Source: a bacterium (GTDB lineage: Bacteria > Calditrichota > Calditrichia > RBG-13-44-9 > J042). From it: a DNA stretch of 32,108 bases. Location of the stretch: positions 1 to 32,108 of the forward strand of contig WGBF01000221.1 in assembly GCA_015494485.1 (NCBI GenBank), read 5' to 3'. The notes below the pieces were generated by a model. It was given only the letters and a program-made list of their open reading frames with translations, was not told the DNA's origin and searched no databases. The stretch's first letter is position 1. Each line of letters starts with the position of its first letter. The position numbers were made by a program, and so were the translations under genes. Below, in pieces: positions 14,676 through 32,108 of the stretch.

Positions 14676-14695
14676 AAATTCCCGTTTGGCCGTTT

Positions 14696-15241: not shown

Positions 15242-15250
15242 AGGCAATCC

Positions 15251-15877
15251 TCATATTTTTGATTCCTCTTTACTCTTTTCTTCGTTCTCGAACAAAAATT
15301 TTAAATCTTCCTGCAATTTCAAACGTCCACGGTTCACCCGCGATTTCACGGTACCCAGGGGAATGTTCAATATCTGGCTAATTTCTTCATATGAAAACCC
15401 CTGCACATCCCGCAATAAAATCACCTCTTTAAATTTCGGCGGTAACTTTTCAATCGCCTTCTGAATAATATCATCTTTTATGGTTCCATCCACTTCCAGT
15501 TCCGGATTCTTATCTTCGTCTGGAATTTCATAATCTTTTTCTTCATTCATAAAATTACTAACGCTGAAAAGCTTTCTTCGTTTCCGTTTCCGCAATTCTG
15601 TTTTAGCTAAATTCCCTGCAATGGTGTAAATCCAGGTCGAAAACTTGGCAATTTCCTTATAGTAATGTTTATTTTTATAAACCCTCAAAAATGTTTCCTG
15701 AACAATATCTTCGGCATCGTTGCGGTTTCCCACAAAACGATAAACGAAGTTCAACAATTGGTCTTTATAGCGATGAACCAGAATGTCAAATGCCTGCTGA
15801 TCACCCTGCTGGAAACGTGCAATAAGTTCTTCATCCGTTACCTTTTGGGGTTTATTGTTCTTTTTTTTACCTGTCAT
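15251..15877 (-). CDS. ECF-subfamily RNA polymerase sigma-70 factor
   Basis: 208 aa. Region 2 (DAEDIVQETFLRVY, FSTWIYTIAGN) and region 4 (VILLRDVQGFSYEEISQILNIPLGTVKSRVNRGR). Confidence 0.9.
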   Translation of the reverse strand: MTGKKKNNKPQKVTDEELIARFQQGDQQAFDILVHRYKDQLLNFVYRFVGNRNDAEDIVQETFLRVYKNKHYYKEIAKFSTWIYTIAGNLAKTELRKRKRRKLFSVSNFMNEEKDYEIPDEDKNPELEVDGTIKDDIIQKAIEKLPPKFKEVILLRDVQGFSYEEISQILNIPLGTVKSRVNRGRLKLQEDLKFLFENEEKSKEESKI

Positions 15878-15926
15878 ATTAAAGTCGAATGTTTTACTGT
15901 TTGCAAGGTTTTGAGTTCCCGTTATA

Positions 15927-16934: not shown

Positions 16935-17035
16935 TTTACCTTTTCACTTTTCCAGGCTTTGCGTAAAAAATAGATAAAACCGCCCCAGATGATTGTCAAT
17001 TCAATGACCATCACAATAATGCTAAATGTTTCCAT
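16931..17035 (-). CDS. MetS-like small subunit of the NSS transporter (34 aa, single TM)
   Basis: Too short for the ORF track. Manual translation gives METFSIIVMVIELTIIWGGFIYFLRKAWKSEKVK. An AAGGGGG RBS precedes it. The ATG lies 14 nt inside the 3' end of the NSS gene, and its TGA overlaps the holA ATG (ATGA). Confidence 0.55.
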   Translation of the reverse strand: METFSIIVMVIELTIIWGGFIYFLRKAWKSEKVK

Positions 17036-18482: not shown

Positions 18483-18548
18483 TAGCGCCTCATTGTGAAT
18501 TTTCGTTGCGAATTTTAACTATTTCCGTCCGTATTCCAAAACCAATAT

Positions 18549-19718
18549 CTAAAATGAAGCACGGGCTTTGCGGTGCAAATGCCAGAAAGCACCAGCCGAA
18601 ATCAATTGCAAGACCACCACTACGCTGAGCATTACCGCCAGTTGCATTTCGTACAACCAGCCAATTAGGGTACTACCGGCAAACCAGGCCAGACCAAAGA
18701 TGCCGTTAAACAGACCGAATGCTGTTCCCCGCCGTTCCGCGGGCACCAGATCGCTGACAACCGCTTTTAAAATGGATTCCCGGGCACCCATGGCAACCCC
18801 CCACAGCACAATACCGGCTACCACCCACTGCGCAGAAAAACCAAACAAAAACAACGGGGCAACGGCACTAAACAACGCAGCAAACGCCATTACCTGAATA
18901 CCAGAACGGTCGTACCACCGCCCCAGCCCAAGGGCCGCCACTGCATCCACCCCCATGGCAACCGCGTAAACAACCGGAATCCAGGCATCCGCAATGACCG
19001 CACTGGCTTTCAGGTGATACGCAACCAAGGGAAAATCCACAAACCCGGCCCCTAAAAACACCGCCGCGAACAGAAATTGCTTAAACGTAAACGGCAATTG
19101 ATTGTCAGTCGGCGAAACGTTCTGCGTTTCAAACTCCTGGGGACGGGGAAAGAGTACCCGACCCACCACCAGCAGACTAAACGCAATGAGGGCCGGGATC
19201 AGCAACACAGCGTATCCCTGGCGGTAGGTATCATGCACAAACAAAATCCCCGCAAGCAGTAAAGGCCCGGCAACGGCGCCAATCTGGTCCATGGCTTCGT
19301 GCAGTCCAAACCCCCATCCGCTTCCCACGCTTCGGGTTGCTCCGGAAAGGAGCACATCCCGCGCCGGGGTGCGAATGGCTTTTCCCAACCGTTCGGCGAT
19401 CACCAGAGCCACAGCAACTTCCCACTGCCCGGCCAATGCCAACAGGGGTACTGCAAATAAATTCAAGGCATACCCAAAAAAGGTAAATCCCCAATACCAG
19501 CGGGTTTTGTCGCTCCAATAGCCAAACAGCATCCGCAGGGTAACGGAAACAAACTCCCCAAAGCCGGCCACCATGCTGACTACCAGTCCGGAGGCTCCCA
19601 GAATTTGCAAGAACGGTCCAATGGTGCTACGGGCGCCTTCGTAGGTCATATCCGCAAACAGACTTACCAGCCCCATCAAAATAATAAAATAATACGGAGA
19701 TGATTTTTTTACCGCCAT
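18549..19718 (-). CDS. MFS transporter
   Basis: 12-TM pattern. I set the start at ATG 19718 (MAVKKSSPYYFIILMGLVSLFADMTYEG), which has a GGAGG RBS. The 131-codon N-terminal extension in the track ORF is low-complexity and runs across the divergent promoter. Confidence 0.85.
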   Translation of the reverse strand: MAVKKSSPYYFIILMGLVSLFADMTYEGARSTIGPFLQILGASGLVVSMVAGFGEFVSVTLRMLFGYWSDKTRWYWGFTFFGYALNLFAVPLLALAGQWEVAVALVIAERLGKAIRTPARDVLLSGATRSVGSGWGFGLHEAMDQIGAVAGPLLLAGILFVHDTYRQGYAVLLIPALIAFSLLVVGRVLFPRPQEFETQNVSPTDNQLPFTFKQFLFAAVFLGAGFVDFPLVAYHLKASAVIADAWIPVVYAVAMGVDAVAALGLGRWYDRSGIQVMAFAALFSAVAPLFLFGFSAQWVVAGIVLWGVAMGARESILKAVVSDLVPAERRGTAFGLFNGIFGLAWFAGSTLIGWLYEMQLAVMLSVVVVLQLISAGAFWHLHRKARASF

Positions 19719-19838
19719 CCGCTGCCTCCTCTGTAAGCCGTACCCGCAAGTTACAAAACCCCGGCCATTTCCCCAAGATGCCCGGGAATTTCCGGGAGCA
19801 TTAAAACATTTTTTCATTGCACGATAATATGTGAGAAT

Positions 19839-19846
19839 TATATTTG
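19839..19846 (+). promoter_or_regulatory. candidate -7 box TATATTTG with TTGC -33 element, ClC gene promoter
   Basis: Exact TAnnTTTG, 27 nt upstream of ATG 19873. TTGC at 19817-19820 gives an 18-nt spacer. The box lies inside the GTG-19831 reading frame, which favours the 19873 start. Confidence 0.45.
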
Positions 19847-19872
19847 AACGCTTAGACAAAACCCAGGATACC

Positions 19873-21936
19873 ATGGAAAAATCGCGTTTAAACCGCTGGC
19901 TGACGCAGCTTTCCGACACGCTGGACCAAACGTTTTTTCGGTTCCGCTCTACCGAGCACACCTTTATGGTCATTATGGCTATCATTATTGGTATTGTGGG
20001 CGGCTTTGGCGCGGTTGGTATCCAGTTCCTGATTAAGGTGTTTGTAAAACTGTTCTGGAACACCTGGGAATTTTCCATCGAATACGCCCGAACAGTTCCG
20101 CTGTACGTCAAAATCGGTGCTCCTGCCGCCGGCGGTGTAATCGTGGGGTTTATCGTGCACTATTTTGCGCAGGAAGCCAAAGGGCACGGGGTTCCGGAAG
20201 TAATGGAAGCAATTGCCCTCCGCAACGGGGTCATTCGGCCGCGGGTGGTGATTGCCAAATTGCTGGCCTCCTCTGCTTACATTGGCTCCGGGGGTTCCGT
20301 AGGACGGGAAGGTCCCGTTATCCAAATCGGGTCTTCCGTGGGTTCTACCGTGGGACAATTGCTACGGGTGAATCCCAAGCGGATGAAAATTTTTGTGGCC
20401 TGCGGGGCCGCAGCAGGCATTGCCGCTGCATTTAACGCCCCGGTTGCCGGCGCATTGTTCAGTGTGGAAGTCATTCTGGGGGATTTTGGCGTTGCCCAGT
20501 TTAGCCCCATCGTTATTTCTTCCGTGATGGCAACCGTGGTTTCCCGCCATTTTCTGGGGGATTTTCCCGCTTTTGAAGTTCCGGCCTACGAACTGGGTTC
20601 CCCCATGGAACTGGCCTTTTACATTGGATTGGGCCTCATTGCCGGTTTAATCTCCTTACTGTACATCAACACCCTGTATAAATTTGAAGACCTGTTTGAT
20701 GAATGGTCCATTCATCCGGTGCTGAAACCCATCATCGGTGGCCTCATTGTGGGCGTACTGGGGGTATTTGTTCCCCATATTTACGGCGTCGGGTATAACA
20801 CCATGAACCATGCCCTGCACGGGCAGTTATTGCTGGGCACCATGGTTGGCTTGATTTTTCTGAAAATATTTGCCACGTCGATTAGTTTGGGTTCCGGTGG
20901 TTCCGGTGGTGTATTTGCCCCGTCGCTCTTTATTGGTACCATGACCGGCGGCGCATTTGGGATTATCGTCAACCAACTGGTGCCGTTTGCATCTTCCCCC
21001 GGTGCGTATGCTCTTGTGGGAATGGGCGCCGTGGTTGCCAGTGCCACCCATGCCCCCATTACGGCCATTTTAATCATTTTCGAAATGACCAACGATTACA
21101 AATTAATTCTCCCGCTGATGATTTCCAGCGTCATTGCCACCCTTCTTACGACCAAACTGAAACGGGAATCCATTTACACCCTCAAATTAATCCGCCGTGG
21201 TATCGACTTGTTTCGCGGCCGGGAAATCAATTTACTGCGCTCCATTCCCGTCCGGGAAGTAATGCGTACCGACCCGGTAGTTATTCCGGCCAATACCAGC
21301 TTCAAAAAGCTCATGCAATTACTGGTTCACAGTGACCACACCCAGTTTTACGTGCTGGATTTCAACAACAATTTTGAGGGTTCCGTATCCCTCCACGAAG
21401 CGCGAAAAGCCCTGCTGGACGAGGAATATGTAGCGGATTTGTTAATTGCTCACGACCTGGTCAATCCCAACGTCCCCCGGCTGCGGCCATCCGACACGCT
21501 GGATGAAGTAATGAAAATTTTTGGCCAGGTGGATGCCGAAGAGCTGCCGGTAGTGGACGAAACAGACCCCGGGAAAGTCATTGGTACCGTATTTTACAAG
21601 GACGTCATCGAAGCCTACAACCGGGAAGTGGTGAAACGGAATCTGGTGGAAGAGATGAGCTCATCCATCAAATTGCTGGAAAAACATCACCAGATTCCTT
21701 TTCTGGATGGCTACGCCATGGCAGAAATTCCCGTGCCCCTCAGTTTTGTGGGAAAAACCTTGCGCGATTTGAACATTCGGGCCCGGTTTGGCGTTAACGT
21801 CATCATGATAAAACGACAACAGGATGGTCAGGAACCCACGGAAATTATGCCCTCACCGGATGAAACCATTCAGGCCGGTGATGTTTTAATTGCGGTAGGG
21901 CCGGAAAAAGATCTTGAGGTGCTACGACACTTATGA
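19873..21936 (+). CDS. ClC-family voltage-gated chloride channel/antiporter with C-terminal CBS pair and TrkA-C (RCK_C)-like domain
   Basis: Selectivity motifs GSGGSVGREGP, GVFAPS and GAAAGIAAAFNAPV. Two CBS-like repeats are followed by FGVNVIMIKR...IQAGDVLIAVGP. Confidence 0.9.
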   Translation: MEKSRLNRWLTQLSDTLDQTFFRFRSTEHTFMVIMAIIIGIVGGFGAVGIQFLIKVFVKLFWNTWEFSIEYARTVPLYVKIGAPAAGGVIVGFIVHYFAQEAKGHGVPEVMEAIALRNGVIRPRVVIAKLLASSAYIGSGGSVGREGPVIQIGSSVGSTVGQLLRVNPKRMKIFVACGAAAGIAAAFNAPVAGALFSVEVILGDFGVAQFSPIVISSVMATVVSRHFLGDFPAFEVPAYELGSPMELAFYIGLGLIAGLISLLYINTLYKFEDLFDEWSIHPVLKPIIGGLIVGVLGVFVPHIYGVGYNTMNHALHGQLLLGTMVGLIFLKIFATSISLGSGGSGGVFAPSLFIGTMTGGAFGIIVNQLVPFASSPGAYALVGMGAVVASATHAPITAILIIFEMTNDYKLILPLMISSVIATLLTTKLKRESIYTLKLIRRGIDLFRGREINLLRSIPVREVMRTDPVVIPANTSFKKLMQLLVHSDHTQFYVLDFNNNFEGSVSLHEARKALLDEEYVADLLIAHDLVNPNVPRLRPSDTLDEVMKIFGQVDAEELPVVDETDPGKVIGTVFYKDVIEAYNREVVKRNLVEEMSSSIKLLEKHHQIPFLDGYAMAEIPVPLSFVGKTLRDLNIRARFGVNVIMIKRQQDGQEPTEIMPSPDETIQAGDVLIAVGPEKDLEVLRHL

Positions 21937-22772
21937 GCATTTTAAAAACATTCAACATTCGGGACGGACGACAACGCAAGCAAACCATTGAGGTTCTGTA
22001 CGAAGACGACCACCTGGTCGCAGTAAATAAACCCGCGGGCTTACGGGTTATCCCCGATAGTTTTAACGCAGCGCTCCCCAATTTATTAACCATGCTGGAA
22101 TCCCGCTACCGGAAAGCGCTTGGGCAGGAAGGACAGCAACTGTGGGTGGTACACCGCATCGATATGCACACCAGTGGCGTAGTTATTTTTGCCCGCACCC
22201 CGGAAATGCACCGGCATTTAAACCGGATGTTTGAACACGGCGAGGTGCACAAAACATACTGGGCCGTTGTCCGGGGCTACGTTCAACCGCGGGAGGGACG
22301 CATTGACTTTCCCATGGCACCGCACCCGTCCCGCAGCCGCATGATGATTATTTCCGAAAAAGGTAAACCGGCCCGCACGGACTACCGGGTGCTGGAGGAA
22401 TTTGAACATTTTACCCTGGTGGAAGTGTATCCCCGTACCGGCCGCACCCATCAGATTCGGGTGCACTTTCAGGCCATAGGAAATCCCCTGGCCATTGACC
22501 CCATTTACGCCAAAACGCTCAGCATCGACATTTCCAATTTAAAACGGGATGTGGTTCGCAAACGGCATTCCCTGGACGAAACACCACCGGCTTTAATGCA
22601 ACGGCTTACGCTTCACGCTTTGCGCCTTTCCTTTACTCACCCGCTAACCGGAAAATCGTTTGAAGTGGAGGCAGCGCTTCCCAAAGATTTTCGGGCATTG
22701 CTTTCCGCCCTGCGGAAGTGGGATAAGCGGAAATCCCCCACGGAGTCTCCATCACTACCTGACTCTCAATAA
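21933..22772 (+). CDS. RluA-family pseudouridine synthase
   Basis: HRIDMHTSGVVIFA (catalytic Asp motif), KTYWAVV and GRTHQIRVH. The ATGA overlap with the ClC stop suggests translational coupling. Confidence 0.9.
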   Translation: MSILKTFNIRDGRQRKQTIEVLYEDDHLVAVNKPAGLRVIPDSFNAALPNLLTMLESRYRKALGQEGQQLWVVHRIDMHTSGVVIFARTPEMHRHLNRMFEHGEVHKTYWAVVRGYVQPREGRIDFPMAPHPSRSRMMIISEKGKPARTDYRVLEEFEHFTLVEVYPRTGRTHQIRVHFQAIGNPLAIDPIYAKTLSIDISNLKRDVVRKRHSLDETPPALMQRLTLHALRLSFTHPLTGKSFEVEAALPKDFRALLSALRKWDKRKSPTESPSLPDSQ

Positions 22773-22831
22773 CCCAACCCAGGCACCCCAAGAACTTTCA
22801 ATTCCCCTTTTATTTTCTTCTAAAAATTGTG

Positions 22832-22839
22832 TATTTTTG
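22832..22839 (+). promoter_or_regulatory. candidate -7 box TATTTTTG upstream of asd
   Basis: Exact TAnnTTTG, 27 nt upstream of ATG 22866, with a GAGGG RBS in between. Confidence 0.4.
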
Positions 22840-22865
22840 GCGCTAAAAATGTAGTGAGGGTTAAA

Positions 22866-23861
22866 ATGTTTACTGTAGCTGTGGTTGGCGCCACGGGTCT
22901 GGTGGGGCAAAAAATGTTAAAAGTCCTGGAGGAACGAAATTTCCCCGTCAAACGGTTGATTCCCATTGCATCCCGTCAATCCGCCGGGGAAAAAATTCGT
23001 TTTCGGGGAGAAGAACTTACGGTTCAGCCGCTCTCCGAAACGGTATTCGACGGTGTTGATTATGCCCTGTTTTCCGCAGGGGCCGCTATTAGCCGGGAAT
23101 TTGCCCCAAAGGCAGTGGCCCAAGGCGTGACCGTTATCGATAATTCCAGTGCGTGGCGAATGGACCCAAAGGTGCCATTGATTGTCCCGGAAGTAAATCC
23201 CCATGCCGTTTCCGCCGAAGACCGGCTCATTGCCAATCCCAATTGCTCTACCATTCAGATGGTAGTGGCCTTAAAGCCCCTACATGATCGGTTTCGGATT
23301 AAACGAATTGTGGTAGCAACCTATCAGGCAGTAACAGGAAGCGGCAAGCAGGCCGTCCAGCAATTGCATGAAGAATTGACCAGCGGGACTGCCAGCAATC
23401 CCTTTTACCCACACCCCATTGCTTTTAATTGTTTGCCGCATATTGATGTGTTTCAGGAAGATGGCTACACCAAAGAAGAACACAAGATGATATTTGAAAC
23501 CCATAAAATCATGGAAGACGACACCATTGGCGTATCCCCCACCGCGGTCCGGGTTCCCGTACTGGGTGGGCATTCGGAAGCCATTAACGTGGAATTTGCC
23601 CACTCCTTTAACCTCAATGAAGTGTACGAAATTCTTCAACAAGCGCCGGGAGTTACGGTGGTGGACAAACCTGCCCAAAACGAATACCCCATGCCGCTGT
23701 ATGCCGAAGATAAAGATGATGTATTCGTAGGGCGCATCCGGCGGGACCCTTCAATTCGGAATGGCTTGAATTTGTGGGTTGTAAGCGATAACTTGCGCAA
23801 AGGTGCGGCAACCAATGCGGTACAAATTGCGGAATTGATGATAACCAAACGGAGCCAATAG
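22866..23861 (+). CDS. asd: aspartate-semialdehyde dehydrogenase
   Basis: VAVVGATGLVGQ dinucleotide-binding motif, NPNCSTIQMVVAL active-site Cys, and SGGHS-like (LGGHSEAI) and DNLRKGAA motifs. The track start at 22827 is a TTG. Confidence 0.92.
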   Translation: MFTVAVVGATGLVGQKMLKVLEERNFPVKRLIPIASRQSAGEKIRFRGEELTVQPLSETVFDGVDYALFSAGAAISREFAPKAVAQGVTVIDNSSAWRMDPKVPLIVPEVNPHAVSAEDRLIANPNCSTIQMVVALKPLHDRFRIKRIVVATYQAVTGSGKQAVQQLHEELTSGTASNPFYPHPIAFNCLPHIDVFQEDGYTKEEHKMIFETHKIMEDDTIGVSPTAVRVPVLGGHSEAINVEFAHSFNLNEVYEILQQAPGVTVVDKPAQNEYPMPLYAEDKDDVFVGRIRRDPSIRNGLNLWVVSDNLRKGAATNAVQIAELMITKRSQ

Positions 23862-23916
23862 ATTGCGGAAACCGAAGGCTAAACGTCCCGTGGCCTCCCC
23901 CACCTCTGCTCCGGTC

Positions 23917-24654
23917 ATGCCGGGTGCAGAACCAATTTTCATAGACCAGGGTGAAAAGGGCCTACTATTCTTGCACGGTTTTACCGGTTCCCCCTACGAG
24001 GGGCGCGATTTTGCGGAATATTTCAAAGAAAAAGGATACACCATCTGGGTTCCCTTACTCCCCGGACACGGGACGCATCCCCGGGATATGGAACACGTTA
24101 CCTGGGAAGATTGGTACCGCGCCGCCCGCAATCATCTGTTCAAATTGCAACGCAAATGCCGCAAGGTAGCCGTGGTGGGGCAATCCATGGGTGCCGCCCT
24201 GGCCATGAATCTGGCGGCCCATTACCCATTTGATGCGCTGGTTACCCTGGCAGGATTTGTTTTTTTAACCGACTGGCGTTTGAAATTGCTGCCAGTAGCC
24301 CGGCACGTTTTGCGCTACCAGTACAAGTCCAAGGGACCGGACATTCACTCCAGGGAAGCGAAGAAAAGGAGCGCCTCCTACCACAAATATCCGGTGAAGA
24401 GCATCCAGCAACTACTGGCATTAATTGAACACGTACGGGGGGATTTACTGGATATTCACATTCCAACGTATTTAGTCCACGCCAAACGCGACCATGTTGT
24501 GCCGTATTCCAACCTGGACTACCTGTACAATCACATCGGTTCTAAAATCAAAAAACGACTGCTGGTGGAAAATTCATACCACATTGTCAGCGTGGATTAT
24601 GACAAAGATTTAATATTTAAAGAATTGGACGCCTTTTTCAAAAAGTATTTATAA
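23917..24654 (+). CDS. alpha/beta hydrolase, Est30-like carboxylesterase / lysophospholipase type
   Basis: LLFLHGFTGSP, the GQSMGA nucleophile elbow, and late D (KRDHVV) and H (NSYHIV). The start is uncertain: ATG 23917 or TTG 23863. Confidence 0.78.
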   Translation: MPGAEPIFIDQGEKGLLFLHGFTGSPYEGRDFAEYFKEKGYTIWVPLLPGHGTHPRDMEHVTWEDWYRAARNHLFKLQRKCRKVAVVGQSMGAALAMNLAAHYPFDALVTLAGFVFLTDWRLKLLPVARHVLRYQYKSKGPDIHSREAKKRSASYHKYPVKSIQQLLALIEHVRGDLLDIHIPTYLVHAKRDHVVPYSNLDYLYNHIGSKIKKRLLVENSYHIVSVDYDKDLIFKELDAFFKKYL

Positions 24655-24677
24655 TGTAAGAATACACTACGTTCGCT

Positions 24678-24929
24678 TTAGCATCCCTCTTCTTCTTCCC
24701 CTTCATGGAGCTGCATTTCCGGCGGCACTACCGGTTTTTGTGGCTGTGCTTGTATATTCGCGCCCCGTTCCACAGTTCGTGCCGTCGGACGATTCCACAA
24801 TTGCTGATACCGTTGCAACTTGCCGGCATTCAATTGCTCCGCAGACGGAAATGAAAACGCTACAATCAAAGCAATAACCATCAGAACAATCGATAACACT
24901 GTAAGAATTTTTAAATTTTCGTTGTTCAT
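24678..24929 (-). CDS. 83-aa membrane-anchored protein with acidic C-terminal ...HEGEEEEGC tail (hypothetical; candidate sulfur-carrier arm)
   Basis: AAAGGAGAA RBS. One N-terminal TM helix (ILTVLSIVLMVIALIVAFSF), then a Pro/Gln-rich linker. The single Cys is the last residue. The tail is paralogous to that of the 26250-26882 product. Confidence 0.65.
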   Translation of the reverse strand: MNNENLKILTVLSIVLMVIALIVAFSFPSAEQLNAGKLQRYQQLWNRPTARTVERGANIQAQPQKPVVPPEMQLHEGEEEEGC

Positions 24930-24948
24930 ACCCCATTCTCCTTTAAAC

Positions 24949-24976
24949 GCGGTGGGGAATAGAAATTCCCCACCGC
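24949..24976 (-). terminator. intercistronic perfect 12-bp stem-loop (GCGGTGGGGAAT-N4-ATTCCCCACCGC); possible attenuator or mRNA-stability element
   Basis: Read directly; 8 of the 12 pairs are G:C. On the minus strand it starts 10 nt after the rhodanese stop. It is followed by GTTTAAAGGAG, a weak U-tract that runs straight into the RBS of the next gene. Confidence 0.5.
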
Positions 24977-24986
24977 TGGTGTTTCC

Positions 24987-25862
24987 TTATTTGCATGCAG
25001 CGCAGGCAATGGCACAATCCGCGCAACTTGCCCATTCGTTCATCGAACCATCGTACAACCGCGCCGGTAATTTGGCAATTTCATTAAAAGCAAACCACCC
25101 AATAGAAGCGATATTCCCCGAATTACAAAAATGGATAGCAGGCGTACCCACGCCCTTTACTTTTGCCAGCGCTTTAATGGCATCTGCCGATTTGAAGGTC
25201 CAATCCGCATTAAAATACATCGTAAAGGGAATATTTATTGCGCCTTTAATGGTACCTGGCTTGGCCACCACTTTGTGTTTCTTCTTACCCAGATAGAAAT
25301 CTGCCGGCCGGTCATCCACAAGATATTTGGCTTTTTTCACGTCTTCCAGAGTGGCCAGAGCGGTTTTATTGAAATCCTTTAACGTGATATTGCCTTTTTT
25401 GGTAATCGTCGGTACTTCGGTGGATACCTTATATCCGTTAGCTTTCCAGGCTTTTAAACCACCATCCAGCACGGAAACGTTCACCCCAAAGTTTTTTAAG
25501 GTGAAGTAAGTCCGGGTGGCATAATACACCATTTTCAACTTCGTATCCGGCCATACCACAATAACGTGGGAATTGTTGGAAATCCCCAGGTCCCGGAGGT
25601 ACTGCTGTAATGCCGCCTTATCCGGCAACTCTGCCACCAATCCGTTCCGTTTGACTTCAATTTTTTTGAAGTCGGCCCGAATGGCCCCGGGGATATGCCC
25701 CTGCGCGTACACTTTGGCTGAGGACACATCCAGCACCACCACATTGGGCGCGTTTAAATTGTCATGAAGCCACTTGGCGAAAACCAGTGGTTGGGCATTA
25801 CCAATTGTTGCAGCGGCAAACACAAAAATCAGAATAAGGTACAACCATTTTACGGACCGCAT
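24987..25862 (-). CDS. secreted two-domain rhodanese (thiosulfate/3-mercaptopyruvate sulfurtransferase architecture) with Cys-rich C-terminal tail
   Basis: Sec signal peptide MRSVKWLYLILIFVFAAATIGNAQ. The N-terminal domain is inactive (VVWPDTK). The C-terminal domain is catalytic, with the loop HFCNSGNIAS. The protein ends in SCADCAIACAACK. AGGAGGG RBS. Confidence 0.85.
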   Translation of the reverse strand: MRSVKWLYLILIFVFAAATIGNAQPLVFAKWLHDNLNAPNVVVLDVSSAKVYAQGHIPGAIRADFKKIEVKRNGLVAELPDKAALQQYLRDLGISNNSHVIVVWPDTKLKMVYYATRTYFTLKNFGVNVSVLDGGLKAWKANGYKVSTEVPTITKKGNITLKDFNKTALATLEDVKKAKYLVDDRPADFYLGKKKHKVVAKPGTIKGAINIPFTMYFNADWTFKSADAIKALAKVKGVGTPAIHFCNSGNIASIGWFAFNEIAKLPARLYDGSMNEWASCADCAIACAACK

Positions 25863-25964
25863 TTTTCTGCCCTCCTATTTTTCTCTATATATTGGAGGAG
25901 TTACGATACATTTATCTTTCTGCATGATTAACACAGTACCCAAATTATTTATACGGCAACGAAA

Positions 25965-26012
25965 GAGGAAATTCCTCCTTTTCTATTGCACCTTATTCTT
26001 CTATCGCACCTT
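25965..26012. repeat. 13-bp palindrome GAGGAA-A-TTCCTC followed by two 14-bp direct repeats TTCTATYGCACCTT (18-bp period)
   Basis: Read directly. The palindrome is at 25965-25977 and the repeats are at 25981-25994 and 25999-26012 (13/14 identical). They lie 100-150 nt upstream of the rhodanese ATG (25862), within a 387-nt AT-rich spacer. Confidence 0.4.
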
Positions 26013-26249
26013 CTATTAAACTTGCATGGTAATTCATTATTCAAAACTGACAAATTAATCTATACTTTATATATGTGAAGAACCCGCTCTGATACAACCT
26101 TCTAAATCTAAAGATTCCAAATACAAAAGCCTTTTCCACTTATTTCCTGCTATGCTACACGAACAACTGACCAAAAGTCTTTAATGGTAATATGTATATC
26201 ATCCAAAGAACACATCTCTCTTAAAACCCGAAACATCCGCGTGTGACAA

Positions 26250-26882
26250 TTAACATCCTTCATCTTCTTCTTCAGCTTCCTGCAAGACAATATGCCGTTT
26301 TTTAGGTTTTTGGGGTTTAGACTGCGCAGCTGTAACTCCGATTCCTCCTTTGTTAAAATATTGGGAAGCTGCTTTCCGGAAGCTAAACTGCAGTACTTCC
26401 GTATCCGAAGACAAATCACTGGGAGGATTGGGATTCAAAATAGCTTTTGCCCAGTAGTTTAAGCCACCAAGCAAATAATAACTATTAATGCCCAACGTTT
26501 TTAGAATAACCCAGGCTTGCGCGCTATAACGGTCACCATTAGAATAAAGAATGAGGGTTTTGGTCCTCCGAAGCCATTTTATGTTTTCTGGAGAAACCAA
26601 CTGCCCCAGGGGTATATTTTCTGCGCCTTCAAGATGGTATTGCATATATTCATCTTTACGACGCAGGTCAATAATTGTAATACCCGGTTTTTTGTTAATA
26701 ATCCAATCGGCTAATTGTTCTGCCGTCACATAATCACTCTGGCTTAAAATAGAATTAATAATATCCTGTGGGGAAAAACGTTGAAATTTTTTTTCTCCTG
26801 CAGGAGAGATTGCCAGTAAAAATCCAAGTAAAAGTAACACTAAAATGCCAACTTCTTTGGTGAATAGTTGTTTTAGTTTCAT
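26250..26882 (-). CDS. membrane-anchored single rhodanese-like domain protein lacking the catalytic Cys (Ser114), with acidic ...QEAEEEDEGC C-terminal tail
   Basis: N-terminal anchor or signal KEVGILVLLLLGFLLAIS. The rhodanese fold pattern (ITIIDLRRKDEY..GHLEGAENIP...LILYSNGDRYSAQAWVILKTLG) has TCT (Ser) at 26541-26543 where the C-x5-R loop Cys is expected. The only Cys is the last residue. Confidence 0.8.
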   Translation of the reverse strand: MKLKQLFTKEVGILVLLLLGFLLAISPAGEKKFQRFSPQDIINSILSQSDYVTAEQLADWIINKKPGITIIDLRRKDEYMQYHLEGAENIPLGQLVSPENIKWLRRTKTLILYSNGDRYSAQAWVILKTLGINSYYLLGGLNYWAKAILNPNPPSDLSSDTEVLQFSFRKAASQYFNKGGIGVTAAQSKPQKPKKRHIVLQEAEEEDEGC

Positions 26883-26911
26883 GACCTTCTCACCCCTAAC
26901 AATTATTTTTA

Positions 26912-27523
26912 TTATTCCATTGGTGTTTCACCTTCAATAATTTCACCGAATTTCTTTTCAATTAGTTCAGCTACTTTAAACAATCCCCATGCCATCAGAA
27001 TAACTAAAAAGGCAACAACACCTGGTCGCCATCCTAACCATTCAGGTAGCGTTACCCTACCCATAGGATGGCCATTAATGAAATTTTGAACAAAAGGATA
27101 TATCTCACCAAATATCCACATTCCAAATAACGCACCGCCCACATAAAACATTCCATCCAATTTCCCAATGGCACTGGCTACCAGAGAAGTTCCAGGACAA
27201 AATCCACCAATAACAAACCCTAAGCCCATTAGAACCCCACCCAGAATTTGTCCATTTAAAATGGTTGGTGGCACATATACTAAAGAAATGTCCAGAATTT
27301 CAGCCCAATTTAGATATAGCAATCCTACCATAGCCACAACGATAGCGGTAAACATGACTTTCAACACAGCCATATCCTTCAAATAGAATTGGTAAGCCAA
27401 TTTTCTGGAATTGCCAAAGCCTGAACTTTCCAAAATGTAGCCAAATAACAATCCGATAATGAATGCGAAAATCAAGCTGGTATCAAATCCAAAATATCCC
27501 AATTTGTATAATGGTGCAATCAT
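26912..27523 (-). CDS. YeeE/YedE-family sulfur-transport membrane protein (half-size, second of pair)
   Basis: 203 aa with 4-5 TM helices. It carries the conserved GGFCPGTS motif of the PF04143-type 'sulphur transport' repeat. GTGAGGT RBS. Confidence 0.82.
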   Translation of the reverse strand: MIAPLYKLGYFGFDTSLIFAFIIGLLFGYILESSGFGNSRKLAYQFYLKDMAVLKVMFTAIVVAMVGLLYLNWAEILDISLVYVPPTILNGQILGGVLMGLGFVIGGFCPGTSLVASAIGKLDGMFYVGGALFGMWIFGEIYPFVQNFINGHPMGRVTLPEWLGWRPGVVAFLVILMAWGLFKVAELIEKKFGEIIEGETPME

Positions 27524-27538
27524 GATTTTTACCTCACA

Positions 27539-28057
27539 TTATATCCATTGTTTACGCAAAAAATACGCGAACGCATATGCCGCAATAAACATTACCCAGA
27601 GGAAAATCCAGCTTCCCAAACTCAACGTGGCCCCTCCGGTAAGCCCCTGGCCACTGGTACATCCACGAGCAATACGTGCACCAATACCCATAGTCATTCC
27701 ACCCAGAAAAGCTAATAGCCAGCGTCCTTTATTGGAAATGCGGGGTCCATGATCGGTTTTAAAGCCTAATCGGCCATGGATATAGCCTGATAAGAAACCA
27801 CCAAAGAGGACACCCAGAATTTCAAATACCAACCAGGCTTTCAAGGGAGAACCACCTTTTAAATATTTGGCAAAATAAGGGTTAGCTTGAGCATGTTCAG
27901 GGCTGACTAATGATAAAATGTAGGTAACCAATCTCATTTCTCCGCCAGATGCTCCCAGGCCCCGTCCCATGATAAAAAAGGTCATCAATAACAAAAGGCC
28001 TAACATCAATCCAGCAAAATAAGGATTCCAATACGGTTTAGACTGCGGCTTTTTCAT
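27539..28057 (-). CDS. YeeE/YedE-family sulfur-transport membrane protein (half-size, first of pair)
   Basis: 172 aa with 4 TM helices and the conserved ARGCTSGQGLTG motif. AAGGAG RBS. Confidence 0.82.
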   Translation of the reverse strand: MKKPQSKPYWNPYFAGLMLGLLLLMTFFIMGRGLGASGGEMRLVTYILSLVSPEHAQANPYFAKYLKGGSPLKAWLVFEILGVLFGGFLSGYIHGRLGFKTDHGPRISNKGRWLLAFLGGMTMGIGARIARGCTSGQGLTGGATLSLGSWIFLWVMFIAAYAFAYFLRKQWI

Positions 28058-28078
28058 TAGGTTTCTCCTTTATCATTA

Positions 28079-29014
28079 TTAGAACGAACTCAATTGTCCC
28101 GCTTGAACAAAAATAAATCGCATTAAAATGCCCCCAAATAAAATCAATACTGCTGCCACACGGGTTCGCTTTCCTAAATTGGATATTTCCAGTGTTTCCA
28201 AAATAGCGGGTATTATAATACCTAATCCCACAACCAAAACCCAAAACGAAGCAGTATAGGGACCACCTAAGAATAATTTAGCAGCTTGTATTTTCACTTC
28301 ACTGGAAGCCAGTAATCCCATAAATAGATGGATGATAAAAAACAATTCAAGACTTATGGTCATCAAATCAATCTTGTTTAATAACAAATGTTCCTCATGA
28401 TTTTTAGAAAGTAACATTAGAAATGCTAGACCTGTGGACAGACCGGATACTAAGAATAGAGGCCCTAAAATTGCAGAATTCCAGAAAGGACGGGCATTAA
28501 AAGCACTAAGTAATATTCCGGTATACATTCCTAAAATCATCGACAATACCATTAAAATCCAGGCCAGAAGCTTGCTCTTTTTTTGAGTATAGGAAACAAC
28601 AGATTGAAAAACCGGATGCGGCCATCGCCATTTTGGAAATACCGATGTAATGTGCAACATCGCCCATAAGATACTCAAGGGTAATATAGTGATTAGGGTC
28701 CATGCCCCCCAAGACATAGGCGATTTCAATCGTAATGTCATATAAAATCGAAACAAATGGAGTTTATAATCCAGATCTAGAAATAATGCAAACATCCCAA
28801 TTGCCAATAAAATAGGGGCCCAAATAGCTCCCAATCGAACAATAGCGGGATATTCCTCCTCTTTTCCGCGTAAATAATATAAAGCAGAAAAGAAGAGTAA
28901 CCCTGCCACTAAGCCACCTAAAAACAAATAGGTTGGAATTTGCCAGTGCCAGATGGTTAAATATGGGTCAATCAAGTGGTTATGGCGTCCGCTAACGATC
29001 GTCACTTCGTGCAT
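28079..29014 (-). CDS. nrfD: NrfD/PsrC-family molybdoenzyme membrane anchor subunit
   Basis: 311 aa with 8 predicted TM helices. The N-terminus W.IPTYLFLGGLVAGL is typical of the NrfD/PsrC family. It directly follows the 4Fe-4S subunit gene. Confidence 0.88.
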   Translation of the reverse strand: MHEVTIVSGRHNHLIDPYLTIWHWQIPTYLFLGGLVAGLLFFSALYYLRGKEEEYPAIVRLGAIWAPILLAIGMFALFLDLDYKLHLFRFYMTLRLKSPMSWGAWTLITILPLSILWAMLHITSVFPKWRWPHPVFQSVVSYTQKKSKLLAWILMVLSMILGMYTGILLSAFNARPFWNSAILGPLFLVSGLSTGLAFLMLLSKNHEEHLLLNKIDLMTISLELFFIIHLFMGLLASSEVKIQAAKLFLGGPYTASFWVLVVGLGIIIPAILETLEISNLGKRTRVAAVLILFGGILMRFIFVQAGQLSSF

Positions 29015-29029
29015 GGCTCGACCTCACTA

Positions 29030-29566
29030 TTACGTTAAATAGAACACTTTGGGTTTAGTCCCCGCCTCTGGGTGCAATACATGATGATGGCGGGTCTTTA
29101 ACAATTTGGATACTTCACTTTCCGGATCATCCAGATCACCAAAATGCATCGCATGTGTAGGGCAAACTTCCACACATGCTGGCAGCAAGCCTTCCTTCAA
29201 GCGATGTTCACAAAATGTACATTTATCCACATACCCTTCCGGATGGACATACCGGGCATCATAAGGGCAGGCTGCTATACATGCTTTACAACCAGTGCAC
29301 TTATCCTTATCCACCAGTACAATTCCCCCTTCCACCACGTGGCTGGCGCCGGTAGGACAGCACCGAACACAAGGAGGATTTTCACAATGATTACATCGTT
29401 CGGATCGAATTTCCATATATAATTCCGGAAATAATCCCTGTACATCCTGCACAATCCAATCCCGACAATACCCCACCGGGACGTTATTCTCCGTCTGGCA
29501 GGCTACCACACAATCGCCACACCCGACACATCGTTGCGTATCAATTACCATTCCATATCGGGCCAT
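29030..29566 (-). CDS. 4Fe-4S dicluster-domain electron-transfer subunit (PsrB/PhsB/NrfC type)
   Basis: Four Cys clusters: CVGCGDCVVAC, CNHCENPPCVRCCP, CTGCKACIAACP and CTFCEHRL...CVEVCP. GGAGGA RBS. Confidence 0.9.
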   Translation of the reverse strand: MARYGMVIDTQRCVGCGDCVVACQTENNVPVGYCRDWIVQDVQGLFPELYMEIRSERCNHCENPPCVRCCPTGASHVVEGGIVLVDKDKCTGCKACIAACPYDARYVHPEGYVDKCTFCEHRLKEGLLPACVEVCPTHAMHFGDLDDPESEVSKLLKTRHHHVLHPEAGTKPKVFYLT

Positions 29567-29584
29567 GATGTCCTCCGTTATTGC

Positions 29585-31837
29585 TTAAGCGGTTAGCTTT
29601 TTTACTTTTCGAAATGTAACAAAATTGGTTCGTAAACCTGTTCCCCCCATAACGGGGTCCGTTTTTACTTTCGTAATTAATTTTGCGGTTGAAGCACCTT
29701 TTTTATAGGCGCGTTTTAAACGCCTATCCCAGTGACCAAAACCATGGACCATATAGACACAATCATGCCGGATGCGTTCGGTTACTTTTACACGGATTTT
29801 ATTACTGCGCGCGCCATCCTGATTTTCTAATATCACATATTCCCCATTTTTAATGCCATGCAATTGGGCTACTGTCGGATGCACCCATACTTCATTCTCC
29901 TTCATCAATTGATATAATAGAGGATTATTGGTAGTACGGCTAAAGCTATGCATTGGTGCACGCCCATAAATCAATCGATAATACCCCTCTGGAGGTTCTT
30001 CGGGATGTTCATAAGTGGGTAAGGGATCAAACCCTGCAGCTTCCATTACGGTGGAATATAATTCGATCTTACCTGTGGGAGTTCTAAACCGCGGCTGAAT
30101 ACCTTCTTCAAAATAAATCGGCGTTTTTTGTTCGGGTAAACGAACCACCCCTTTCTTTTTTAGTTCCGCTAGCGATAAGCCAACTTGCTTAAGACGATAA
30201 TCCAGATACTCTTCAATATCATTCCATGGGAACCATTTATCCAGCCCCAGACGATGTGCCAATTGTTTCGCCATCCACCAGGAAGGTTTGCTTTCCCACC
30301 TCGGCGGGAAAGCCGGGGCTCGCAATGCAATGGTAGGCATTTTCCCTTGAGAAATCCGTAAATCATCATACCGTTCCAGATATGTACATTCCGGTAATAC
30401 CACATCCGCCCAGCCAGTAATTTCGGAGGGGATAATATCTATGACGGCAATGAAATCTAATTTCTGGATAGCATCAATAGTTTTTTGCGGTTCTGGCAGA
30501 GTCATTAAAAGATTTGTAGCATTTACCATCCAACCTTTGATTGGATGTGTAGCATTATCTCCTTGCAAAGTTACATCACGAAGCACATTTGTTGGTGCTT
30601 TACGTGCTAATGGATATTGATCTAGGGTTAAATCTTTCCAAGTCCACCGCGGCTCCGGGAAGGGTGGGAGAGGATATTTAGGTACCCGAGCTTTGTTTGG
30701 ATAATAGTACCCTCCCCGTCTACCCCAGGAACCGAGCAAAGCGACTAGTATGGCTAATGCCCGTTCCCGTTGGGTATCGTTGCCATACCAAGTAACGTGG
30801 CGCCCGGGATGAATCAAAGTTGCCGGTTTTTGCATGGCCATCTCCCGAGCAGTTTGTCGAATGATATGAGGTTTGATTGTAGTAATTGGGTAAGCCCATT
30901 CCGGGGTGTAAGGCTGAATAAATTTCTTTAATTTATCAAAACCATAAGTATATTTTTCTACATATTCCTTATCATATAAATTTTCTTGAATCATTACATT
31001 GATCCAGGCCAGTAATAAAGCTAAATCTGTTCCCGGCCGAATGGGTAACCAATATTTTGATTTACTAGCTGCAGTGGAATAACGAGGATCCACTGTAATG
31101 ATTGTTGCACCTCGAGCCACCGCGTCAGAAAATTCCTGAACCTGAGAATTCAACATATTTTCACCAATATGACTCCCTATCAATACAATACAACGCGCAT
31201 TAGGGATATCAATCCGTTCTGGAGAACCAATTCCCTCTCCAAATGTTAAGCGAAATCCTTCCTCCCTGGGCCCACGGCATTGGGCATAAGAAGGTTCAGC
31301 AATTGTGTCAGAACCAAAAGCTTTGAATAACGGTTCAAAAAAACGGCTCCCAGAACCATGGGTAAACAACGCCATGCTTTCCGGACCATATTTATCCGCA
31401 ATTTTCTTCATATTTTCTGCAATAAAATCCAATGCTTCTTCCCATGTTACTTGAACAAATTGTTGCTTTCCTCGCACAACCTTTCGCATTAAAGGATATT
31501 TTAATCGTTCGTTATCCGTATATGCCCCTATGCCACCTGTTCCCCGGGGACACAATCGTCCATTGCAATTCGGATCGTCTTTATGCCCAACGATCTTCCA
31601 AGGTTTGCCATCAACTTTGTATACCCAACCAGCACATTTCCAGAAACAAATCTCACAATATGTGGGACTCACTTCCAGGTTTCCCGGGGTATTAGGACCA
31701 ACCAACGGTAAAGCATCAGCTTGAGGCCACTCGGACTCGGAAACAATAGCCTCCAGAGCTTTACCCCCAATTGCCAAACCCGCAACACCTATTCCACTAA
31801 TTTTAAGAAACTCCCGCCGAGTAAACTTCGGACTCAT
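29585..31837 (-). CDS. Tat-exported molybdopterin (bis-MGD) oxidoreductase catalytic subunit, PsrA/PhsA (polysulfide/thiosulfate/tetrathionate reductase-like) family
   Basis: 750 aa. Twin-arginine signal FTRREFLKISGIGVAGLAIG. N-terminal FS0 motif CEICFWKC-x28-C. RLKYPLMR and a candidate Mo-ligand Cys in SYAQCRGP. There is no in-frame TGA. AAGGAG RBS. Confidence 0.88.
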   Translation of the reverse strand: MSPKFTRREFLKISGIGVAGLAIGGKALEAIVSESEWPQADALPLVGPNTPGNLEVSPTYCEICFWKCAGWVYKVDGKPWKIVGHKDDPNCNGRLCPRGTGGIGAYTDNERLKYPLMRKVVRGKQQFVQVTWEEALDFIAENMKKIADKYGPESMALFTHGSGSRFFEPLFKAFGSDTIAEPSYAQCRGPREEGFRLTFGEGIGSPERIDIPNARCIVLIGSHIGENMLNSQVQEFSDAVARGATIITVDPRYSTAASKSKYWLPIRPGTDLALLLAWINVMIQENLYDKEYVEKYTYGFDKLKKFIQPYTPEWAYPITTIKPHIIRQTAREMAMQKPATLIHPGRHVTWYGNDTQRERALAILVALLGSWGRRGGYYYPNKARVPKYPLPPFPEPRWTWKDLTLDQYPLARKAPTNVLRDVTLQGDNATHPIKGWMVNATNLLMTLPEPQKTIDAIQKLDFIAVIDIIPSEITGWADVVLPECTYLERYDDLRISQGKMPTIALRAPAFPPRWESKPSWWMAKQLAHRLGLDKWFPWNDIEEYLDYRLKQVGLSLAELKKKGVVRLPEQKTPIYFEEGIQPRFRTPTGKIELYSTVMEAAGFDPLPTYEHPEEPPEGYYRLIYGRAPMHSFSRTTNNPLLYQLMKENEVWVHPTVAQLHGIKNGEYVILENQDGARSNKIRVKVTERIRHDCVYMVHGFGHWDRRLKRAYKKGASTAKLITKVKTDPVMGGTGLRTNFVTFRKVKKLTA

Positions 31838-31960
31838 ATGAGTCTCCTTTTCGTTTTGGCCTTTAATTGGTTATAATTATCTTTTCGCATGTTTAAACCA
31901 CTCTCGTCAAGTAATAGACATATTCAGAAAATATACCTGATTTTTTTTATTTTCATTTTC

Positions 31961-32005
31961 TCATTCACAATACTGTAAAATTTCACTCGTTCAATCATTC
32001 ACAAT
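31961..32005. repeat. two exact 11-bp direct repeats TCATTCACAAT, 34 bp apart, upstream of the molybdoenzyme operon
   Basis: Read directly at 31961-31971 and 31995-32005. They lie 124-168 nt upstream of ATG 31837, and each contains a TCACA half-site. Confidence 0.4.
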
Positions 32006-32050
32006 GAAAAATAATTACTAAATAAATAAAACACAATATAAAATATTTTT

Positions 32051-32066
32051 TGTGAAATATATCCCA
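32051..32066. promoter_or_regulatory. CRP/FNR-family-like site TGTGA-N6-TCCCA
   Basis: 9/10 match to TGTGA-N6-TCACA, 214-229 nt upstream of the psrA-like ATG. It could equally serve an unseen divergent gene beyond the window. Confidence 0.25.
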
Positions 32067-32108
32067 AATATTTTGGCCCAAAAACCGACTTTTCGTAAGG
32101 TTCACTAC

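Follow-up and report, generated by a model that had tools for sequence, protein, structure and literature searches.

A conserved Gly-Cys C-terminal tip on proteins encoded beside polysulfide-reductase and YeeE genes, and its proposed role as a periplasmic sulfur-carrier arm

Why should two proteins encoded on one bacterial contig, one a rhodanese-like protein of 210 amino acids (aa) and the other an 83-aa protein that is "hypothetical" at NCBI, both end in an acidic run followed by Gly-Cys? The question arises from a 32,108-nucleotide stretch of Calditrichota DNA (contig WGBF01000221.1 of assembly GCA_015494485.1; hereafter, the window), in which the first of the two genes closes a cassette encoding a polysulfide reductase (Psr)-type molybdoenzyme and a YeeE-family channel. 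Six or more different proteins encoded next to polysulfide-reductase genes carry the same Gly-Cys tip, and they come from several bacterial lineages. The reading that we favor, at a probability of roughly 55%, is that the Gly-Cys end is the working tip of a flexible periplasmic arm that serves the Psr-type molybdoenzyme and its YeeE-family channel, with a chemistry that we infer. The two open reading frames (ORFs) are as follows:

24678..24929, minus strand: 83-aa ORF; C-terminus ...PQKPVVPPEMQLHEGEEEEGC, then TAA; terminal Gly-Cys at 24681-24686.
26250..26882, minus strand: 210-aa ORF, here called Rhd-GC; C-terminus ...PQKPKKRHIVLQEAEEEDEGC, then TAA.

Both proteins end in acidic-EGC-COOH, a distance of 17 residues separates a PQKP motif from the stop in both, and the single Cys of each is its last residue, just as an earlier note on this DNA had described. 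Plausible ribosome-binding sites can be read from the sequence for both ORFs, which are the only 2 of the window's 243 ORFs of 40 aa or more to end in GC or GCx. The earlier note had allowed that the stop codons might be products of error, and this concern can be set aside: an independent contig, L001, matches window positions 24523-29037 at 98.9% identity over the full stretch, therefore neither the stops nor the 83-aa/210-aa gene junction are assembly artefacts, and orthologues of both Cys-tipped proteins have the same ends. The L001 identity and the orthologue ends likewise rule out an assembly or sequencing artefact at the junction between Rhd-GC and the tandem-rhodanese gene that follows it. 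Chance or low complexity as the source of the tails is also ruled out, by the window ORF count, by a control in which [DE]E[DE]EGC-stop was sought in 2.9 million viral contigs (39 matches versus about 28 by chance, a rough estimate), and by the profile over 111 relatives given below.

A genome scan with the Rhd-GC family alignment gave 262 relatives, of which the best 80 loci were examined, and a metagenome scan gave 356 loci, of which the best 80 were examined; pooled, the two sets comprise 111 unique Rhd-GC relatives. The hosts of the 80 genome loci are Calditrichota, KSB1, Bacteroidota (Marinilabiliales, Bacteroidales), Marinimicrobia, and other FCB-group bacteria, with two cultured isolates among them, Labilibaculum manganireducens (L073) and Ancylomarina sp. 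DW003 (L066). The C-termini of the 111 relatives are distributed as follows:

G-C: 72 of 111.
G-C-[S/T/D]: 37 of 111.
G-S-C: 1 of 111.
No motif: 1 of 111.

The Cys is last or next-to-last in 110 of the 111 relatives, down to about 27% identity, and 92 of them have no other Cys; G209 and C210 were invariant in the first family alignment. This retention of the Gly-Cys end supports the view, already put forward in the earlier note, that the tail is a functional module. When the 72 G-C tails are right-aligned, Lys or Arg occupies positions -6 to -9 at 76-96%, followed by Ala or Val at -5, a variable residue at -4, Gly, Glu, or Ala at -3, Gly at -2, and Cys at -1, and the form that most tails take is KKKK-[AV]-x-[GE]-G-C. 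Two other proposed hallmarks did not hold across the family. First, the acidic run is restricted on Rhd-GC to the window's own clade (the window, P0002, and P0003), a basic run being the norm in the rhodanese family tails. Second, neither PQKP nor its 17-residue spacing is a conserved rule, as relatives differ and carry QKKP (P0018), SPKP (P0052), VQKP (P0002), or VAKP (P0003) instead. What recurs is a looser pattern of a basic patch, a short hydrophobic stretch, an acidic run, and GC. Separately, Rhd-GC is duplicated in tandem in two Bacteroidales loci (L070 1507-2750; L071 9989-11232), where both copies end ...EAAGGGCD.

The architecture of Rhd-GC, from Pfam, an AlphaFold2 (AF2) model with a mean predicted local distance difference test (pLDDT) score of 80.6, and the family alignment, places this conserved tip at the end of a disordered tail:

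26808..26858, minus strand: N-terminal hydrophobic helix, residues 9-25 (AF2); either a signal anchor or a signal peptide that can be cleaved; motif of the family, LLLGALLAISPAG.
26433..26735, minus strand: rhodanese homology domain, residues 50-150; pLDDT above 90.
26535-26546, minus strand: rhodanese active-site loop YSNG, with Ser at the catalytic Cys position.
26253..26351, minus strand: disordered tail, residues 178-210; no secondary structure, pLDDT 42-55.
26283-26318, minus strand: basic patch and HIVL of the tail.
26259-26279, minus strand: acidic run of the tail.
26253-26258, minus strand: Gly-Cys of the tail.

The rhodanese domain is recognized by Pfam (E 2.6e-13), and Foldseek returns the rhodanese fold with a probability of 1.00, the best matches being single-domain rhodaneses. 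A further helix lies at residues 160-177 (AF2), and L19, G20, A24, and P27 are at least 90% conserved in the N-terminal region alignment. In a profile alignment to rhodaneses of the PDB, Y-S-N-G of Rhd-GC stands opposite Y-C-G-G of 6mxv, and a Cys at this catalytic position was found in 0 of the 111 relatives, 60 of which have YSNG and the rest mostly YG... Because the catalytic position holds Ser or Gly, the tail holds the sole thiol of Rhd-GC. Judged from its sequence, the domain is thus a rhodanese homology domain and not a canonical catalytic rhodanese. The tails of both Rhd-GC and the 83-aa protein are predicted to be disordered (AF2), in keeping with the flexible arm suggested earlier. 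As for the N-terminal membrane anchor attributed to both proteins in the earlier note, a hydrophobic helix is present in both models, and it may be either an anchor or a cleaved signal peptide.

Rhd-GC is the sixth gene of a one-strand cassette with the order PsrA-PsrB-PsrC-YeeE(N half)-YeeE(C half)-Rhd-GC. This order is kept in nearly all 80 Rhd-GC loci examined, where the contig extends far enough, and the YeeE pair always lies directly upstream of Rhd-GC. The other five genes of the window's cassette are as follows:

29585..31837, minus strand: PsrA, catalytic subunit with molybdenum-bis(pyranopterin guanine dinucleotide) (Mo-bisPGD) (Pfam/NCBIfam); twin-arginine translocation (Tat) motif TRREFLK and Mo-ligand motif AQCRGPR.
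29030..29566, minus strand: PsrB, four-cluster iron-sulfur (FeS) subunit, Fer4_11 (Pfam/NCBIfam).
28079..29014, minus strand: PsrC, NrfD type (Pfam/NCBIfam).
27539..28057, minus strand: YeeE N half, 172 aa, motif ARGCTSG (Pfam Sulf_transp).
26912..27523, minus strand: YeeE C half, 203 aa, motif GGFCPGTS (Pfam Sulf_transp).

A Tat-exported Mo subunit with a Cys ligand, an FeS subunit, and an NrfD membrane subunit together define a Psr/Phs-type complex iron-sulfur molybdoenzyme, and the window's PsrA matches that of Thermus thermophilus (2VPW) with 683 bits (E 3.6e-204). Each YeeE half has the Sulf_transp domain and a single Cys, the pore Cys, inside ARGCTSG or GGFCPGTS; matches of the halves to NCBIfam models, including the selenium-linked YedE, are weak and far below the cut-offs. 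Neither Pfam nor a survey of the window ORFs revealed a TusA-like ORF, whether inside the cassette or elsewhere in the window, which outside the cassette consists of housekeeping and regulatory genes and has no DsrE or Sox genes. The names borne by identical or near-identical proteins place the host in Calditrichia. Elsewhere, three Calditrichota/KSB1 loci have DsrC/TusE-like ORFs of 102-105 aa, ending ...GLPKPQGCV, within a few kb of Psr-YeeE-RhdGC (L008 3517-3825; L014 12670-12987; L022 13445-13762).

The 83-aa gene belongs natively to a different, cytochrome-b-type cassette, encoding in order a TorD-like chaperone, a Mo subunit of about 780 aa, an FeS subunit (243 aa, with a C-terminal helix), a fusion of cytochrome b with the YeeE N half (cytochrome b::YeeE_N), the YeeE C half (YeeE_C), a tandem rhodanese, and the small protein. 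The fusion protein, of about 498 aa (L081 6915-8411; L125 5906-7402; many of L135-L214), joins the channel to a PF01292 dihaem-type cytochrome b, the quinol-oxidising subunit, an arrangement that implies a physical association of the YeeE channel with the respiratory reductase.

In this cassette, the catalytic subunit itself carries the tip. The Mo subunit, which is Tat-exported, shares 50% identity with the window's PsrA, and matches 2VPW with 805 bits, ends ...PPKTIPPMEEVEEEEGC; it has a Tat motif, and its Cys tip is therefore predicted to be periplasmic. Cys-tipped Mo subunits were seen in L081, L125-128, and L132, in three protein fragments, and in 11 further metagenome loci from a scan seeded with the C-termini of the tailed Mo subunits; when C-terminal fragments were used to look for tailed catalytic subunits, most of the matches were short fragments. 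In the metagenome loci, the extension ends in acidic-EGC; counted from VNFV, it runs to 47-52 residues in the 10 cases that were measured, and it is longer in fragments P0020 and P0051. All 11 metagenome loci have the cytochrome-b-type architecture, and in none is Rhd-GC part of the same cassette. A basic-hydrophobic element, PKKR-IVV, is common to the Mo-subunit extensions, the small proteins, and the window's Rhd-GC. It is this tailed Mo subunit that is a truly unrelated scaffold with the same tip.

The 83-aa protein and Rhd-GC, by comparison, do not appear to be the two unrelated scaffolds for which the earlier note had taken them. A profile of nine small proteins aligned with the N-terminal helix region of Rhd-GC over 49 columns at 92% hhalign probability (E 5.5e-7), a score to be read with the caveat that hydrophobic-helix matches can be inflated, and the motif LLLGxILAIGYPxG of the small proteins resembles LLLGALLAISPAG of Rhd-GC. 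When the single 83-aa sequence was set against the Rhd-GC family, the tail alone aligned (E 0.0027, 11% probability). The N-terminal regions are probably homologous, to go by these alignments, such that the small protein would be Rhd-GC minus the rhodanese domain. Across the natural series, the rhodanese domain is dispensable, and the arm is not.

Close relatives of the 83-aa protein are few. A word-index search found two (P0017, 96% identity; P0018, 72%), and HMMER over 1.84 billion representatives added one (P0052, 50% identity); more distant orthologues are recognisable by cassette position alone. Six such positional orthologues (L136, L137, L138, L141, L144, and L149), of 83-92 aa, with an acidic-EGC end and encoded directly after YeeE_C, have lost recognisable sequence similarity to the 83-aa protein. 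The layout of helix, basic stretch, spacer, and acidic-EGC was found at seven loci whose contigs extend past YeeE_C, the seventh being L135, where it is the orthologue of the 83-aa protein proper that follows the tandem rhodanese. The features of this end of the window are as follows:

24852-24926, minus strand: helix of the 83-aa protein, residues 2-26 (AF2); the remainder is disordered.
24987..25862, minus strand: tandem rhodanese, 291 aa; Pfam rhodanese in two stretches; Sec-type signal peptide, predicted periplasmic.

The tandem rhodanese, which stands beside the small protein in the cytochrome-b-type cassettes of L081, L125-128, L132, and L135, has a Cys in its second-domain loop, HFCNSGNIAS, and matches ExtH and SseA-type models weakly (ExtH, 102 bits versus a cut-off of 200). 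With a loop Cys and a signal peptide, it is a better candidate than Rhd-GC for a Sud-like role. Two further observations concern this gene. Its C-terminus (window 24987-25025) bears a four-Cys motif, C-x2-C-x3-C-x2-C-x (CADCAIACAACK, CADCPIACAACN, CSDCPIACAGCQ), which is conserved in the tandem rhodaneses of L081 (9063-9938) and L132 (6683-7558) and is a second type of Cys-rich C-terminal tail in the cluster. Between its stop and the start of the 83-aa gene lies a hairpin (24949-24976) with a perfect 12-bp stem (GCGGTGGGGAAT-AGAA-ATTCCCCACCGC), which could act as an attenuator or an RNA-stabilising element.

How the two tails came to stand in one genome is answered by the close relatives, in which three arrangements occupy one chromosomal site beside abhydrolase and asd genes:

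Arrangement A: cytochrome-b cassette ending in the tandem rhodanese and small protein (L081, L125-128, L132).
Arrangement B: PsrABC-YeeE-YeeE-RhdGC, then the abhydrolase gene directly (L129-131).
Arrangement C: the six genes of B, then the last two of A (the window, L001).

Compared with L125 by blastn, the window is 98.5% identical over 14678-25887 and 89.6% identical over 31994-32108, with weak homology between. The swapped segment (25888..31993, 6.1 kb) comprises PsrABC-YeeE-YeeE-RhdGC and a 362-bp spacer in place of TorD-MoA(tail)-FeS-cytb::YeeE_N-YeeE_C, MoA being the Mo subunit, and the gap from Rhd-GC to the tandem-rhodanese gene is 387 bp. By these alignments and gene maps, the window is a natural recombinant between two cassette types. 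The swap therefore brought the two tails together in one genome without local duplication, in place of the duplicated tail that the earlier note had supposed. Two side observations attach to this site. L001 (WAPZ01000430.1) was deposited under a Candidatus Heimdallarchaeota metagenome-assembled genome, where it is probably misbinned, as its genes and near-identical protein names point to Calditrichia. Further, small GIY-YIG nuclease genes (about 82 aa) lie just upstream of the cassette site in L128 (1-892, three in tandem) and L130 (461-712), and these nucleases may be linked to cassette exchange.

The tip extends well beyond these relatives. In about 30 loci, mostly from soil/peat metagenomes, the order is Mo subunit (no tail)-FeS-cytb::YeeE_N-YeeE_C-Rhd, and the Rhd ends K[KR]LKLG[RKH]GC[ST] after a Pro/Ala-rich linker. 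Such Ala/Pro-rich tail linkers (P 24% and A 19% in one clade) resemble known swinging-arm linkers. Both cassette types stand side by side in L141 (a 647-kb contig) and L144, where the tips are acidic in the cytochrome-b cassette and basic, ...KRKREGC, in the Psr-type Rhd-GC. Finally, L190 and L213, from another lineage, encode an NrfD-type PsrABC without YeeE, together with three more signal-peptide proteins that have GC ends (L190 6287-6610, 11828-12043; L213 6118-6441, 11977-12192, 15682-16989):

107 aa: ends ...KKTAGC.
71 aa: Lys/Glu-rich, directly after PsrC; ends ...SGC or ...AGC.
435 aa: lipoprotein-like rhodanese; ends ...APGGC.

Genes for a porin, a DUF3373 protein, and a rhodanese with three domains in tandem (a triple rhodanese) lie near those of these GC proteins. 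The tail is covered by no Pfam or NCBIfam model, and the same is true of the small proteins and of the GC proteins of 71 and 107 aa.

To relate tail to channel, we sampled loci for the similarity of their Mo subunit and for nothing else, keeping those with 4.5 kb or more of downstream sequence:

YeeE present: tail present in 29, tail absent in 0.
YeeE absent: tail present in 3-4, tail absent in 7.

In the mechanism that we propose, the lone terminal thiol would attack a sulfane sulfur (of polysulfide, S8, or thiosulfate), to give a persulfide, polysulfide, or thiosulfonate of the Cys. With a Gly as small neighbor and no chain beyond it, the tip would be able to thread into the narrow PsrA funnel, where the S-S bond would be reduced by electrons passing from quinol to PsrC or cytochrome b and on to PsrB, after which sulfide would leave and the thiol would be regenerated. 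The upstream basic patch, sometimes together with the short hydrophobic stretch, would dock the arm on the complex or on the membrane surface, and the YeeE pair would deliver a sulfur species to that site or remove it from there. Three kinds of protein might provide the arm: a Cys-less rhodanese, a minimal protein made up of helix and tail, or the catalytic subunit, by way of an extension. In this role, the arm would amount to a tethered version of Wolinella Sud, on the same plan as the SoxY and DsrC carrier arms. The tip is predicted to be periplasmic on three grounds: one carrier is Tat-exported, others have signal peptides, and the N-termini that precede the helix are positively charged. 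The earlier note had offered a swinging arm, a recognition tag, and a site of modification as possible roles; sequence does not decide between them, and the arm fits best.

Several points weigh against this proposal. That the tip docks in the PsrA funnel is something we purely infer, and the charge next to the tip flips between clades (KKKK versus EEEE), for which a single docking site offers no obvious explanation. The 3-4 tailed cassettes without YeeE, and the seven Psr-like ones with neither, indicate that the arm is not required by all such enzymes, while the strength of the YeeE link suggests that the arm may serve the channel instead of the Mo site. Further, the window's PsrA scores 482 bits against the NCBIfam PhsA model, for which the cut-off is 694, and the N-terminal helix may be either an anchor or a cleaved signal peptide.

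The alternative that best survives takes up the YeeE link: the arm would serve the YeeE channel and not the Mo site, with the tip exchanging persulfide or thiosulfate with the Cys-lined pore as a periplasmic counterpart of YeeD/TsuB, and the reductase merely supplying or consuming the species. A tail protein in 29 of 29 YeeE cassettes, set beside YeeE-less cassettes that mostly have no tail, speaks for it, as do the invariable position of Rhd-GC or the small protein directly after YeeE_C, the absence of a TusA-like gene from the cassette and window, and the Cys conserved in each YeeE half; YeeD, moreover, binds thiosulfate on a Cys next to YeeE (PMC13047784). We nevertheless consider it unlikely as a replacement for the arm reading, given that one cassette type has a catalytic subunit with the tip fused to it and that GC-tipped proteins occur at YeeE-less Psr loci (L151, L176, L206, L190, and L213). 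The two explanations overlap, and both may hold as one relay.

A second alternative concerns the substrate, and we consider it improbable. The cassette would reduce selenite or tellurite, and the terminal thiols would bind Se or Te as RS-Se-SR-type adducts, in lieu of periplasmic glutathione. PsrA is related to SrrA, a respiratory selenite reductase, the YeeE halves weakly match the selenium-linked YedE models, the best NCBIfam match of the tandem rhodanese (102 versus 200 bits) is the ExtH of a selenite/tellurite reduction operon, and the cytochrome-b-type cassettes have two thiol tails, as a selenotrisulfide needs. However, every selenium-model match is far below its cut-off, whereas the closest solved relative is the Thermus polysulfide reductase (683-805 bits); Psr-type cassettes have one tail gene alone; and the carriers are common anaerobic sediment/gut-type Bacteroidales, for which sulfur compounds are the obvious substrates.

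It is similarly a poor prospect that the tail does no covalent chemistry and is a docking, assembly, or gating peptide (a funnel plug or a tag), its Cys being a redox-sensing or disulfide switch. The strong conservation of spacing, with the basic run at -6 to -9, [AV] at -5, and G at -2, would suit such a peptide, and the shared PKKR-IVV element resembles a binding motif, but pure docking does not need an invariant, lone, terminal Cys. Further, the Gly before the Cys is kept across lineages of opposite flanking charge, and the replacement of the rhodanese catalytic Cys while a tail Cys was gained points to a moved nucleophile. Barely credible, finally, is a permanent modification of the terminal Cys (lipidation, a cross-link to protein or envelope, or cofactor attachment), to which a superficial likeness of the polybasic run and C-terminal Cys to eukaryotic lipid-anchoring tails lends something, but against which stand the absence of a conserved modifying enzyme from the cassettes examined, the acidic variants that membranes would repel, the N-terminal hydrophobic helix already present in the protein, and the same tip on a soluble Tat-exported enzyme.

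If the tip is indeed the end of a sulfur-carrying arm, it bears on how sulfur, when insoluble or dilute, reaches the buried Mo site of polysulfide and thiosulfate reductases, an old question that, to our knowledge, has been answered for Wolinella (Sud) alone; a genetically obligate, Cys-tipped arm would be a concrete and testable answer for many anaerobes, including sediment/gut-type Bacteroidales. The findings also tie the split YeeE/YedE channels, themselves poorly understood, physically to a respiratory enzyme, via the cytochrome b::YeeE fusion, and they offer an annotation rule for "hypothetical" and "rhodanese-like" proteins, namely G-C-x(0,1)-COOH after a charged linker, adjoining psrA. 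More tentatively, and with some doubt, we suggest that many of the Psr-type reductases of Calditrichota, KSB1, Bacteroidota, Marinimicrobia, and one soil/peat lineage might act on arm-tethered sulfur, not free polysulfide, in which case the arm and the reductase-bound YeeE would form a new periplasm-membrane relay; SoxY and DsrC would thereby be joined by a third class of protein-bound sulfur carrier, the first known to serve a respiratory sulfur reductase.

In the literature searched, the coverage of which is incomplete and limits the claim, we found no description of the tail. A paper on the psr genes of Marine Group A mentions a "rhodanese-like" gene and nothing more, papers on cable bacteria and Dissulfuribacter treat YeeE, YeeD, and Psr separately, and the MOLY cluster, known from sulfur disproportionators, is a separate system that has no anchor. 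The systems of closest likeness are better known. With YeeE/TsuA, in which a YeeE-family channel works with a small YeeD/TsuB partner that holds sulfur species on a single Cys (PMC13047784), the cassettes described here share a YeeE-family channel with a small single-Cys partner. However, YeeD is a cytoplasmic protein of the TusA fold with an N-terminal CPxP Cys, whereas the Cys partner here is predicted to be periplasmic, the channel is split in two genes or fused to cytochrome b, and there is no TusA-like gene. With the PsrABC of Thermus thermophilus (PDB 2VPW-2VPZ), the catalytic subunits described here show close homology, at 683 and 805 bits; they have a Tat signal and the Mo-ligand Cys motif, and PsrB and an NrfD-type PsrC are also present in the window, although the Thermus PsrA, which aligns to residue 752 of 765, has no room for a 47-52-residue extension.

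Among sulfur carriers, Sud of Wolinella succinogenes is a periplasmic rhodanese-fold protein with a Cys to which sulfur from polysulfide binds, to be passed on to polysulfide reductase. Rhd-GC has a weak profile match to it (PDB 1QXN, E 9.7e-4) and the same partner family, Psr. The Cys of Sud is in the rhodanese active-site loop, where Rhd-GC has Ser or Gly and carries its Cys at the end of a disordered tail, and the arm described here also occurs without a rhodanese domain. DsrC/TusE is cytoplasmic, with a C-terminal swinging arm whose penultimate Cys follows a Gly (...GCV-COOH) and enters DsrAB. The working Cys here likewise follows a Gly at the end of a C-terminal arm, but DsrC is globular and has a second Cys ten residues upstream, whereas these proteins have a single Cys, lack a DsrC domain, and carry a helix that serves as signal or anchor. 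SoxY is periplasmic and has an invariant Cys at the end of a flexible C-terminal arm (GGCGG-COOH), with which it carries sulfur into partners including the molybdoenzyme SoxCD. A partial resemblance lies in a Gly-flanked Cys at the C-terminus, as the tails here end GGC, EGC, or GCS and are predicted to be disordered. The exact GGCGG is absent here, however, the Cys is last or next-to-last, and the arm spans 30-60 residues with a charged docking element; there is no kinship to SoxY in sequence or fold, Rhd-GC matches nothing in Pfam but rhodanese, and no cassette protein has a SoxY or SoxZ Pfam match, the neighbors being Psr and YeeE genes and the partner a Psr-type reductase. By analogy with these systems, a C-terminal Cys carrier arm would be of a known kind, and it is its attachment to a respiratory reductase that appears new.

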